This document shows positions 1 to 3,916 of a stretch of 52,927 nucleotides of DNA, piece after piece. The notes below the pieces were generated by a model. The model was not told the DNA's origin and did not search any database. It was given only the letters and a program-made list of their open reading frames with translations. The stretch covers positions 1 to 52,927 of the forward strand of contig JAMCWQ010000034.1 of NCBI GenBank assembly GCA_023480825.1. The letters are read 5' to 3'. Within the stretch, counting starts at the first letter, position 1. Every line of letters begins with the position of its first letter. The translations under genes were made by a program, and so were the position numbers. The DNA comes from Chloroflexota bacterium. Lineage in GTDB: Bacteria; Chloroflexota; Chloroflexia; JAMCWQ01.

Positions 1-138
1 ATGGCGAGGGTGCTGGGTGGCATGCAAGGTCCGTTAGTAGGGATAGTGAGCGTGCTGAACGGCCCCATCAGGTCGCTGGCGTACCTCTTGCAGGCGAGGG
101 CGGACCAGCTTTCCGGTCAGGAACAGCAGGCCGCATAG
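1..138 (+). CDS. rplJ: 50S ribosomal protein L10, C-terminal fragment (gene starts upstream of the window)
   Basis: Frame 1 is open from the window edge to TAG at 136-138. The tail ...GPLVGIVSVLNGPIRSLAYLLQARADQLSGQEQQAA resembles the L10 C-terminal helix. It lies directly upstream of rplL, as in the conserved rplJL operon. Confidence 0.6.
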   Translation: MARVLGGMQGPLVGIVSVLNGPIRSLAYLLQARADQLSGQEQQAA

Positions 139-172
139 GATAGTAAGAGCATAATAATGGAGGGATTTTGAG

Positions 173-559
<387 letters not shown>

Positions 560-587
560 ACTACCGACCCGGCCCCCTGACCCCCGG

Positions 588-617
588 CCCCTTCCCCCCA
601 AAACTGAGGGGAAGGGG
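588..617 (+). terminator. Perfect 10-bp GC-rich hairpin downstream of rplL (possible terminator or processing site)
   Basis: CCCCTTCCCC (588-597) pairs with GGGGAAGGGG (608-617) across a 10-nt loop, 29 nt after the rplL stop. There is no U-tract afterwards, so it is not a canonical intrinsic terminator. Confidence 0.3.
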
Positions 618-794
618 AGCCAGGGGCGATGGGGGTGGCATAATTTGTCATTGTGAACGGAGCGTTCGGCCGGCTAGGCAGACACACAATGGGAATAGTG
701 AGAGTACCGGCCAGGCAGCCTGTAGGTTAGGTCGGGGAGCGAAGTGATCCTTCCGGGGAAGGACTAGTTCCAGGTTGTCTAGCCACCAGGTACT

Positions 795-863
795 AGATTC
801 TTCGGGCTCTCTTGTTACTGGATAGTGTTCTTAAGTCGGGTAGAACGGGCCCTAAGAATGACA
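795..863. repeat. Degenerate copy of the GTCATTC...GAATGAC palindromic repeat family
   Basis: The left arm agATTCTTCGGGCtc and right arm GGGCCCTAAGAATGACA resemble the arms of the perfect copy at 29486-29556 (CGTCATTCTTCGGGCCCGCC / GGCGGGCCCGAAGAATGACG). Confidence 0.35.
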
Positions 864-892
864 GCGAGTTTTCAAAACTCGCCTGAGTTCTC

Positions 893-921
893 TTGACAAA
901 CGCGCAGCGTTAGGTTATATT
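893..921 (+). promoter_or_regulatory. Near-consensus sigma70-type promoter
   Basis: TTGACA (893-898), a 17-nt spacer, then TATATT (916-921). The predicted +1 is about 928. A palindrome GCGAGTT-ttcaa-AACTCGC (864-882) lies just upstream. Confidence 0.5.
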
Positions 922-927
922 TGAAAT

Positions 928-1380
928 TGCCCCGAGGGGTTGACGAGCTAGTCAGCCGGCAGGGCAACCGGAGTTGTTCCGGTCCGACGAGCGGTGCGGA
1001 GCCGTAAGGCAGATCGGCCGTAAGCCGAGGGAAAGAAGCCGTAAGGTTTCGGAGAGATCGGTAATCTGAGGCGAGCCAGGCCCTTCATCCGAAGGAAGCG
1101 GTGGACCACCAGGGAGTTGGGCAGAGAACGTGAGCGGAGGGTTTTCCCTCATTGCTCCGCCGGTTGTTCCTAAAGGAGTTCCTAGTTCGAAGGTTTCTCG
1201 GGGCACTTCGCGTCCAGCGAATGTGAACCTTTGTTGCCTCCCGCTGTAGGGGCACACGGCCGTGTGCCCGCCGGGGGTTGAGGAGGTGGGTATCTGCTAA
1301 GGGGGCCGGCTGATCTTTCTTCGAAGGACGAAATCCGCAGCGTGAAAGGGCATTAGAGAAGGCATCCCCCGCCGGCGCTG
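928..1380 (+). ncRNA. Candidate structured non-coding RNA of unknown class; the best-supported core domain is 928-1205
   Basis: It starts at the predicted +1 of the 893-921 promoter. TGCCCCGAG (928-936) is perfectly complementary to CTCGGGGCA (1197-1205). There are several GUAA-capped hairpins (1001-1010, 1015-1027, 1039-1046), a GAGGG-tttt-CCCTC hairpin, and a GGGCACACGG/CCGTGTGCCC palindrome (1250-1269). No + strand ORF of 60 aa or more lies between 601 and 1544. Confidence 0.35.
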
Positions 1381-1409
1381 TTGCGGGCCTGGCACCCATC
1401 TGTTATAAT
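1381..1409 (+). promoter_or_regulatory. Promoter for tRNA-Pro with an extended -10
   Basis: TTGCGG (1381-1386), a 17-nt spacer, TG at 1401-1402, then TATAAT (1404-1409). It ends 11 nt before the tRNA 5' end. Confidence 0.45.
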
Positions 1410-1420
1410 ACAAGTCGATC

Positions 1421-1497
<77 letters not shown>

Positions 1498-1544
1498 GAT
1501 TAGTAGAGAGCCCTCCAAAGAAGGGCTCTCTGCGTTTGCAGTAG

Positions 1545-1835
1545 TTGTTGAAGACAGGCGAGGTTGTTATGGAAGCCCCGGAAAGTGCCAAGGAAAGAAT
1601 ACATAGCCTAGTCGAACAATTGCCCGAGAGCCAACTCGATGCTGCTGAACGTGTGCTGGCCTACTTGAAAGTGCGTGGCGAAGACCACTTGCTGCAGGCA
1701 CTGGTGGAGGCTCCAGAGGATGATGAGATTGCCGGCGCGGAGGAAGACCGCGCTGCCGATGAAGCGTGGGCGGAGTATTGCCGCGGCGAAGGTCGAACCT
1801 GGGAAGATGTGCGGCGGGAACTAGCCGATGAGTGA
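1545..1835 (+). CDS. Putative antitoxin of a type II TA pair; the likely true start is ATG 1569
   Basis: This small acidic protein overlaps the downstream RelE/ParE-like gene by 8 nt (1828-1835). A GAGG SD precedes ATG 1569. No recognisable DNA-binding motif was seen by eye. Confidence 0.6.
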   Translation: MLKTGEVVMEAPESAKERIHSLVEQLPESQLDAAERVLAYLKVRGEDHLLQALVEAPEDDEIAGAEEDRAADEAWAEYCRGEGRTWEDVRRELADE

Positions 1836-2100
1836 ATCGCCTACTTGGCGAGTTATTATCACTCCAAGGGCCGAGAAAGAACTGAAGCACTTGGATCCCT
1901 GTGACCAAGCGCGTGTGAGAAGAGCCTTGGACTCCTTTGTGAGTGGACCTGGTCGTGTCGACATCAAGAAGTTGAGAAATAGGGGAGATGAGTGGCGCCT
2001 GAGAGTGGGCGACTGGCGCATCCGTTTCCGAATGGACTACCAAGCTCGCACTATAGTTGTGTTGCACATTCTGCCCCGTGGAACTGCCTATCGCGATTAG
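1828..2100 (+). CDS. RelE/ParE family type II toxin
   Basis: The 90 aa product carries the family signature ...DEWRLRVGDWRIRFRMDYQARTIVVLHILPRGTAYR. It overlaps the upstream small ORF in typical TA architecture. Confidence 0.85.
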   Translation: MSESPTWRVIITPRAEKELKHLDPCDQARVRRALDSFVSGPGRVDIKKLRNRGDEWRLRVGDWRIRFRMDYQARTIVVLHILPRGTAYRD

Positions 2101-2111
2101 ACGCAACGACT

Positions 2112-2163
2112 CACCTGAATGGGGTTCAGGTGGTCGGAGGTTCAAATCCTCTCGTCCCGACCA
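2112..2163 (+). pseudogene. Orphan 3' half of tRNA-Pro (right copy of the direct repeat; attR-like), ending in CCA
   Basis: It is identical to 1446-1496 except for one base. It has no acceptor 5' strand or D arm upstream, so it cannot form a tRNA. Confidence 0.85.
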
Positions 2164-2176
2164 GACAAGCGGGGCA

Positions 2177-3916
2177 CTAGTATTCCAGATAAGCACCTTT
2201 CATTGCTGATGAGGCTCTATCGGTGTATTTCTTATAAACTCCCTTTCTTGGCTCAAATTTCGGAAGCATCCAATGAGACTTCCGGTCTGCGAACGTCTCT
2301 TCCACCTCACTTTGACCACAGCGCCTCCCTGCAATGCCCACCACGTTTAGTCTACGGTTAGCCACGTCCAACTCAATTAAGTCTCCATCTTCCACAAGCG
2401 CTATCGGTCCACCAATGGCAGCTTCTGGTGATATGTGCCCGACAGCAGGACCTCTGGTAGCTCCAGAGAACCGCCCATCAGTTAACAACACTGTTGACCC
2501 GGCCAGTCTGCTATCACACAACATTGCTTCTGTGGTCATGACCATTTCCGGCATGCCTGAACCTCGTGGTCCCTCGTACCGGATAATCAGAACGTCGCCG
2601 GGATTTACTCGATCTCCAACTACACAATAATAGCAATCTTCTTCGGAGTTGAAGACCCTTGCCGGCCCGACGTGGTATCTCATGTCCTCTGCTACGGCGG
2701 CGTACTTAATGACTGCACCTTCAGGGGCTATATTCCCTTTTAACACCGCAATTGAGCCCATTTCTTTTGTTGATTCCAGAGGCCTAATCACCTGCTCGCG
2801 TCTTAATTCATAGTTGCGAAGATACCCTTCAACTCTCTCAAAGAAACCATCATTCTTGACGTCCTGAAGATTCTCCCTTAGAGTCTTTCCGGTTACAGTC
2901 ATCACATCAAGGTTTAGAAAATCCCTGAGCAACCACTCCACCATTGGAATACCTCCGGCGAACCACAAGGCTTCTGTAGGGTACTCGCCACTGGGATAGA
3001 TATTGCCAATATGGGGAATCTTGTGATTTAGCTCATCGAACTTCTCCGGCCTCAATTCAATCCCCAGTTCATGAGCAACTGCTGGCAAATGAAGCATTGC
3101 ATTTGTAGATCCACCTATAGCAGCATGTACCACTACTGCATTATGGAAAGCGTCCGGAGTGAGAATATGTTTTGCCGTAATTCCCTTGTTTACCAACTCC
3201 ATTATCTGTCTTCCTGCTCTTCTTGACGATGCTACGATGTCGCGCATCGTTGCCGGAGCAAGAGCGCTGCCAGGTAATGCTAAACCCAGCGCTTCGGACA
3301 TGCATTGCATTGTGCTTGCTGTGCCCAAGAACTGGCAGGATCCCACTGATGGGCACCCTGTAAGTTTAAAATCTCGAACCTCTTGGGGTGTTATTGCATC
3401 TTTCTTCTTTTCTCTTAGTGAGATGTCTCCTGCTTTCACAGAGGTCGACATGTCCGGTCCAGGCCTCATACTCCCGCCTGGAACGAAGACTGTTGGCAGA
3501 TCCAGGCGAGCTGCTGCCATAAGATGAGCTGGAATCGATTTATCACATGAAGAAATCAAAACCAACCCATCCCATCCGACAAATGATCCATGGATTTCGA
3601 CGATGTCCGCAATCGCATCCCTCGAAGCTAGCACAAAATTCATTCCATTATGCCCTTGCGCACATCCGTCGCAAACATCCGTAACGTGATATTCAGCCGG
3701 CCGTCCTCCTTCTTCATATACTCCGATGCTCACCTGATTACTCAATCCCATAAGATGAGCACTTCCAGGATGACTATCACCAAACACGTCATCAATGAGT
3801 ATCTGCGGCTTTCCTAAGTCTTCCTCATCCCAGCCCATCCCCATCTGGAGAGCATCAAATTGTGCCCAGAGCTTACGTTGCGAGGTGCTTCTTGGTATCG
3901 TCAAACCGTCTTCCAT
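2177..3916 (-). CDS. IlvD/Edd family dehydratase (dihydroxy-acid or sugar-acid dehydratase)
   Basis: The 579 aa product has family motifs: ...[34 protein letters not shown]..., ...[13 protein letters not shown]... and ...[23 protein letters not shown].... Substrate specificity cannot be decided from sequence by eye. Confidence 0.85.

Follow-up and report, generated by a model that had tools for sequence, protein, structure and literature searches.

New classes of bacterial RNA of around 280 nt and comparable complexity are rare, and those that are known are ribozymes, scaffolds of core ribonucleoproteins (RNPs) or open puzzles. The 6S RNA is a rod of ~180-200 nt with a central bubble. Ms1 is ~300 nt long (accessible part of PMC9130861). 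The raiA motif RNA is a monomer of 205 nt, whereas ROOL, GOLLD and OLE form RNA-only multimers, many GOLLD members exceeding 800 nt (all from the accessible part of PMC12286853). In signal recognition particle (SRP) RNA, a symmetric loop in helix 8 is conserved and the apical loop is of the GRRA type (PMC2905702, in the part available). The RNA described here resembles 6S (RF00013) and Ms1 (RF02566) RNA in being free-standing, promoter-driven and closed by paired ends, raiA in being an orphan with several junctions, of comparable size and without a known partner, GOLLD, ROOL and OLE in being a structured orphan, one copy of which lies near a tRNA gene, and the large bacterial SRP RNA (RF01854) in forming a rod of ~265-280 nt that ends in a junction with hairpin arms. 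The window analysed is the whole 52,927-nt contig JAMCWQ010000034.1 (C27) of the Chloroflexota genome GCA_023480825.1 (G000), which is 51% complete and whose nearest relatives compared share only its class. Positions 927-1206 of the forward strand are probably a stand-alone, promoter-driven non-coding RNA gene of ~280 nt that lies outside the Rfam families, and this is very probably a real conserved RNA.

The RNA is preceded by a sigma70-type promoter at 893-921 on the same strand (-35 box 893-898, -10 box 916-921). The preliminary description of this DNA had read TTGACA-17-TATATT here, and the site matches the consensus at 11 of 12 positions and was the best of four found in positions 1-3000, where shuffled sequences lead to an expectation of 1.2. 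In the window copy and all three homologs described below (genomes G423 and G434, metagenome locus L339), the boxes are 17 nt apart and exactly 5 nt separate the -10 box from the paired 5′ end. The ends of the RNA were placed from the promoter and from the homolog boundaries, and would lie at 927 and 1206 (280 nt). The complementarity proposed between 928-936 and 1197-1205 is genuine but forms part of a longer helix, P1, of 14 pairs (928-941/1192-1205) with a mean pair probability of 0.94; in 5,000 shuffles, a perfect complement of the 9 nt at the 5′ end arose in 0.64% and any 8-mer was present three times in 1.1%. Folding of 926-1210 gave a z score of -3.65, with 0 of 200 shuffles as good, and the z scores counted in favour of a structured RNA were -3.65, -5.78 and -5.09. 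The forward strand folded better than the reverse (z -3.42 vs -2.5), and the inner stretch 967-1135 folded alone was of unremarkable stability (z -1.02). The version of ~450 nt that had also been considered gave a z score of -1.10 (926-1380) and its distal part one of +0.27 (1207-1380), leaving 927-1206 alone. The signal is lost on extension because the flanks, 571-874 and 1233-1359, are genome-wide repeats.

No forward-strand open reading frame of at least 60 aa is present, as had been stated, and the longest within the RNA are 31 and 39 aa. A conserved small open reading frame had been named as the competing outcome; those inside the RNA were conserved in no homolog and had no meaningful Pfam or PHROG match. 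The stretch 926-1210 is single copy in G000, in which no second copy was found. The only sequencing run holding the stretch, X1, which may be the source sample of G000, contains a 712-nt contig that spans 739-1450 with three differences, none of them listed inside 927-1206. As this contig crosses the rplL-tRNA join in one piece, the join is not an assembly error, with the proviso that X1 may be the source. RNA run X18 covers only the tRNA, and runs X21 and X22 have no coverage of the RNA; these have no bearing on its expression.

BLAST with the window copy, the comparison first suggested for relatives, gave short chance matches only and nothing useful in 60 relatives, 400 class genomes and 400 phylum genomes. 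Homologs were found instead with a covariance model, R1, for which only the window sequence and the fold predicted for it were used. Across 149 phylum genomes, R1 returned a single end-to-end match, in genome G423, which lies outside the class of the window (contig C15, 5441-5722, 282 nt, 28.9 bits, E 1.8e-5 per genome, R1 E-values being rough and ~300 genomes having been scanned in all). This was the only such match among the 149 other genomes, and across 149 class genomes R1 gave one partial match of 31 nt. G423 was probably among the 400 phylum genomes searched by BLAST and was missed there. At ~52% identity, the family is one that BLAST misses and that a structure model of a single sequence can find. 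A BLAST search of 180 other genomes with the G423 copy identified a 90-91% identical copy in G434 at the same locus. A core pattern shared by the copies was matched at 13 metagenome loci: L339, which was full length and nearly identical to the G423 copy, and 12 others that matched in a hairpin only and were set aside. Between G423 and G434 the RNA is 91% identical, which barely exceeds the 88% at four-fold codon sites but is far above the 54% of the upstream spacer.

The window copy shares 51-54% global identity with its homologs (51% with G423), and its alignment to the G423 copy scored 110 vs 55 ± 10 for shuffles, none of 300 reaching that score; the rplL proteins of G000 and G423 are 70% identical. 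In the reciprocal direction, a sequence-only profile ranked the window locus first in G000, weakly (E 0.083), and a structure model of three G423-type sequences, itself partly informed by G000, gave the window 37 bits vs 14.8 for the next match. Covariance-model alignments between the two lineages were end to end in both directions. Searches of 5, 79 and 147 genomes (sets that overlap slightly) with a four-sequence model, R2, brought no new member, the two large ones scoring only 12-23 candidates per genome; one weak R2 match, in G401, was discarded as it looks like coding sequence. No match was found in G445, which belongs to the genus of G423 and is 84% complete, and the distribution among the genomes searched is very patchy. 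A degenerate pattern for the C-terminus of the lineage's rplL returned 0 metagenome loci, the rplL relatives closest to G000 were P0002 and P0003, and an rplL scan of genome contigs gave mostly distant taxa. Successive viral pattern scans contained no copy (66 loci of tandem repeats, 58 loci, 0, 3 and 2 coding chance matches, then 0, 0 and 0), and the RNA was not found in the phage or plasmid collections searched. Together, the copies probably represent a new family of free-standing structured bacterial RNA of ~280 nt that occurs in two distant lineages.

In G000 the RNA sits between rplL (173-559) and tRNA-Pro(GGG) (1421-1496, forward strand), which has its own promoter at 1381-1409, as previously read, with an extended -10 box. 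At 29 rplL loci of relatives (including two, both negative, from the unpublished genomes G012 and G036), tRNA-Pro was found within the 1.5-kb flank in 9, typically 70-200 nt downstream. The absence of rpoBC, which had been remarked on, is therefore no clue, because rplL is commonly followed directly by tRNA-Pro in the class. The spacer between rplL and the tRNA has grown in G000 to ~860 nt, comprising repeats, the candidate RNA and its promoter. Repeat elements that are multi-copy in G000 and are not part of the RNA occupy 571-874, between rplL and the promoter, and REP-type repeats with many G000 copies occupy 1233-1359, including a palindrome at 1246-1269. The hairpin at 1250-1269, earlier counted with the structured region, belongs to these genome-wide REP-type repeats (in G000, 15 matches on the two strands together when up to 4 mismatches are allowed). 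Between them, the two repeat blocks contain at least three families of palindromes with many G000 copies, some nested in composite units of ~230 nt. The 3′ part of tRNA-Pro (1446-1499) is repeated at 2112-2165, 670 nt downstream, with 52 of 54 bases identical, and the repeats bracket a cassette of two genes, one at 1545-1835 and one at 1828-2100 encoding a ParE-family toxin, the whole being a tiny integrated toxin-antitoxin island whose ends are att-like. At another rplL locus (L131, in G006), a promoter and then a leader lie ~130-330 nt after rplL; the leader resembles a cobalamin riboswitch in its motif.

The G423 and G434 copies are also intergenic, lying between genes that, on reading their sequence, we take to be cpaE-like and ltaE-like, and the gene downstream of both (ltaE-like in G423) is convergent. 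The G423 copy has no tRNA within ~1.5 kb, which makes the link to a tRNA incidental, and is followed by a hairpin and a U-rich run that by eye look like a terminator. Since the gene neighbours differ between the lineages and the downstream gene is convergent in G423 and G434, the setting argues against a target in cis. No partner protein or neighbour gene common to both lineages was found. These observations also bear on the possibility that there is no functional RNA, the G000-G423 match being due to chance or the region being merely a long tRNA-Pro leader. The ~300 genomes scanned with R1, the rough E-values and the weak sequence-only reciprocal match would allow for chance; however, equal length, coinciding ends, promoter offset and intergenic position agree between the copies and were no part of the search, and a leader is at odds with the separate promoter of the tRNA and with a G423 copy that adjoins no tRNA. 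The absence of a functional RNA is therefore considered very improbable.

The proposed fold begins with the two ends. P1 shows one double-sided and several one-sided changes, and P2 (944-951/1182-1189; probability 0.99) has its first four pairs in common among the copies, one of them broken in G423 and L339. Two further helices are hand-derived and tentative, namely P3 (953-957/1162-1166), with a probability of 0.59 in G000 and 0.0 in G423 and G434, and P4 (969-974/1154-1159), with a probability of 0.0 in all three folded sequences and three double-sided changes on a structure-fitted alignment. P5 (984-988/1116-1120), which closes a distal multi-way junction, has a probability of 0.92 in G000 and 0.0 in G423 and G434, and in the sequence-only alignment two of its five pairs show double-sided changes. 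Within the junction, the P6 arm (991-1021) consists of P6a (991-994/1018-1021; probability 0.67 in G000, 0.96 in G423 and 0.99 in G434) capped by a GUAA hairpin at 1001-1010. The P7 arm (1024-1062) is the most conserved part and the best sequence-only reciprocal match; it comprises P7a (1024-1028/1058-1062), in which three of five pairs change on both sides, and the nearly invariant P7b (1035-1040/1045-1050) with a GNRA loop, separated by a 6x7 purine-rich internal loop. The P8 arm (1076-1104, with an apical hairpin at 1082-1095; probability 0.94) resembles SRP helix 8 in the window copy only, the homologs carrying a different hairpin at this position. Side hairpins P9 (1137-1150) and P10 (1167-1178, with an A-rich loop) have probabilities of ~0.9 in G000, G423 and G434 and of 0.51, 0.48 and 0.92, respectively. 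All helices are on the forward strand.

Of the three GUAA hairpins initially proposed, those at 1001-1010 (probability 0.81) and 1035-1050 (0.97) were upheld, whereas that at 1015-1027 (0.02) was not, its bases pairing as in the homologs (1018-1021 with 991-994, and 1024-1028 with 1058-1062). Similarly, the other internal hairpins proposed divide into 1137-1150, which was retained (0.91), and 967-983, which has a probability of 0.29 and is without a counterpart in the homologs.

The sequence-only alignment places P1, P2, P5, P6a, P7a and P7b in register. Over 38 pairs, 98% of 152 cells are paired and there are seven double-sided changes, compared with 0 of 500 shuffles and 23-43% in slid controls, the shuffle control ignoring kinship and the helices having been chosen after the sequences were seen. 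The four sequences amount to about two lineages, three rows being close kin, and the covariation is mostly one deep comparison; with a full-length homolog in the second lineage, it nevertheless bears out the conservation expected of a structured RNA. The structure-fitted alignment, which is biased towards the model and contains a stray fragment as one of its rows, adds P3, P4, P9 and P10 and gives 14 double-sided changes over 83 pairs. When G423 and G434 were folded alone, P3, P4 and P5 had a probability of 0.0 and P7a one of 0.08-0.25, and the energy penalty of the shared model relative to the optimum is 7.5 kcal/mol in G000 and 18-37 kcal/mol in the homologs; in G423 a rival 12-pair helix dominates. 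Both lineages can form a 5′ hairpin whose loop carries a P4 strand, in which case P4 would be a pseudoknot; this hand-derived pseudoknot, with which one change in L339 is consistent, may form from the hairpin loop. Most of the conserved sequence lies in the P7 arm and in the unpaired linkers of the junction. The conserved core measures only ~75 nt, and the centre is plastic. In general kind, the RNA would thus be an orphan structured bacterial non-coding RNA with conserved, covarying structure in two independent lineages only.

A search of the window with Rfam 15 detected only tRNA, 927-1206 giving chance-level matches (E 1.1 and 7.6), and the G423 copy gave none at E 0.1 and three at E 0.67-5.5; neither copy reached the gathering score of any family. 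At the locus there was no match to the RNase P RNA model RF00010 (the RNase P RNA of G423 lies elsewhere, at 295 bits), no tmRNA was detected there by ARAGORN (the tmRNA of G000 is on contig C94), and the raiA motif and OLE models of Rfam and the known ribozyme models were unmatched. A literature search found no description of such an RNA in the accessible text of its sources; the supplements of PMC8632094, PMC11109978 and PMC6429828, or the cluster database of bioRxiv 10.64898/2026.10.21.760802, may yet contain one. The view that this is an independent structured RNA of no known class therefore gains homologs, covariation and the missing Rfam match, and loses the 450-nt extension, two hairpins and a link to GOLLD and ROOL.

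Proximity to the Ms1 RNA in size (~300 nt in the accessible part of PMC9130861), closed ends, an own promoter and a weakly paired centre with side hairpins would all suit an Ms1- or 6S-like RNA that binds RNA polymerase by mimicking an open promoter, a special case of protein binding in trans. However, the 6S models have no match at the locus, and neither has the Ms1 model RF02566 in G000, G423 or G434, although no control genome passed the cut-off of the latter. A normal 6S RNA was found elsewhere in G000, G423 and G434, so that all three carriers keep a separate one, and the neighbours, rplL and tRNA or the cpaE-like and ltaE-like genes, are not the HAD-hydrolase synteny of Ms1. The conserved part is moreover a branched tip and not a central bubble, and unlike Ms1 and 6S the RNA ends in this tip rather than in a simple terminal stem. 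A polymerase binder is accordingly regarded as distinctly unlikely.

An RNA that functions alone, whether compact or self-assembling in the manner of raiA, ROOL or GOLLD, or as a new ribozyme or ligand binder, would use its GNRA loops and purine-rich loop for RNA-RNA tertiary contacts. The multi-way junction with short fixed linkers, the several GNRA caps, the possible P4 pseudoknot and the lack of a co-located protein gene are what such an RNA might show, and there are precedents in the RNA-only multimers and the raiA monomer of PMC12286853, as far as its accessible part goes. Against this stand the small core of ~75 nt, the plasticity of the centre, the lack of a match to any known ribozyme model and the failure to find a copy in the phage collections searched. 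The RNA further differs from raiA in having no Rfam match and no raiA-type neighbour gene and in being far rarer, from GOLLD in being much shorter, and from GOLLD, ROOL and OLE in not having been found in the phages searched, in its non-conserved tRNA adjacency and in its lack of an Rfam match. The tie to the tRNA-adjacent GOLLD and ROOL RNAs drawn in the preliminary description is consequently given up (280 nt, no phage match, and no tRNA within ~1.5 kb of the G423 copy). Function by RNA alone is judged unlikely. Somewhat less weight still is given to the bolder idea that this is the first known member of an old class of large RNA with a new activity (a ribozyme or a scaffold of an unknown RNP), kept in deep-branching Chloroflexota beside SRP, RNase P and 6S RNA, with a centre that forms a pseudoknot or can switch, a conserved arm for docking and a wider spread than the searches could reveal.

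The best explanation overall is that of a free-standing non-coding RNA that would act in trans by protein binding, as a scaffold or decoy, for which a rough probability of 0.5 is given. Junction linkers, a purine-rich loop and a GNRA-capped stem make a surface of the sort used for docking on RNA or for binding a protein. Comparison of the sequences shows a housekeeping-type promoter placed to start the RNA at the first base of P1, and two ends that pair into a long rod ending in the multi-way junction of P5, P6, P7 and P8. The paired ends may protect the RNA from exonucleases and allow it to accumulate, the face formed by P6a and P7 would engage a cellular protein or machine, and the purine-rich loop and GNRA hairpin would dock either within the RNA or onto the partner. 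It would then work in the manner of 6S, Ms1 and OLE, which are abundant RNPs of the orphan and regulatory kinds, with membership of none of them. From the own promoter, defined ends, shared core fold and independence from neighbours, we infer a stable trans-acting RNA. Its defined ends, promoter and short conserved core mean that the RNA can be made in vitro and probed, and the core provides a search handle for larger databases.

The RNA could instead be a component of a mobile or selfish module, such as an antitoxin, a guide or a leftover scaffold RNA, with the protein gene of the module elsewhere or lost. This would fit the patchy presence at different loci and the location in G000, where the RNA is an insertion among repeats and beside a tRNA that also serves as an integration site. 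However, it is single copy in G000, no transposase, nuclease, reverse transcriptase or toxin gene lies beside the G423 and G434 copies, the locus is stable in two species, and no copy was found in the plasmids or phages searched; a module of this kind is thus improbable.

The remaining comparison concerns SRP RNA, as the RNA could be a diverged second SRP RNA, or that of G000 itself, binding Ffh through P8. Positions 1073-1101 resemble SRP helix 8 (a motif also seen in the SRP RNAs of relatives), the length is near that of the large SRP RNA, and G000 encodes Ffh and FtsY (ftsY and ffh are side by side at C105:5757-7903) with no SRP RNA match. However, in the window copy the helix-8 flanks are combined with a longer stem and a non-GRRA loop, and the homologs lack the flanks; the homologs do not share the motif, and for this reason identity as SRP RNA was rejected. 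In addition, G423 has a canonical SRP RNA elsewhere, a profile of 26 class SRP RNAs (two from the unpublished genomes G012 and G036) matched no copy, a relaxed helix-8 motif occurs 32 times in G000, and G000 is only 51% complete. Relative to RF01854, the RNA has no Alu domain, no conservation of the motif and no profile match, and an SRP role is hardly credible. Neither SRP RNA nor RNase P RNA was found in the G000 assembly (51% complete). An SRP RNA match was present in 53 of 60 class relatives, and as the neighbours of SRP RNA vary among relatives, comparison of its neighbour genes is uninformative.

Several observations on SRP RNA were made in passing. All ten class relatives checked (L009-L038) carry a large, Alu-containing SRP RNA. 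Of 150 genomes searched together, 136 gave an SRP RNA match, compared with none of the seven genomes of the phylum family f33 (G420, G431, G453, G464, G488, G520 and G536), which are near-complete (99-100%) and small (1.4-1.9 Mb), which may reflect loss of SRP RNA or a non-canonical SRP RNA in this family. Genomes G408, G512 and G544 were likewise without a match, and G485, G508, G517 and G555 gave two SRP RNA matches each, which may reflect duplication or bin contamination.
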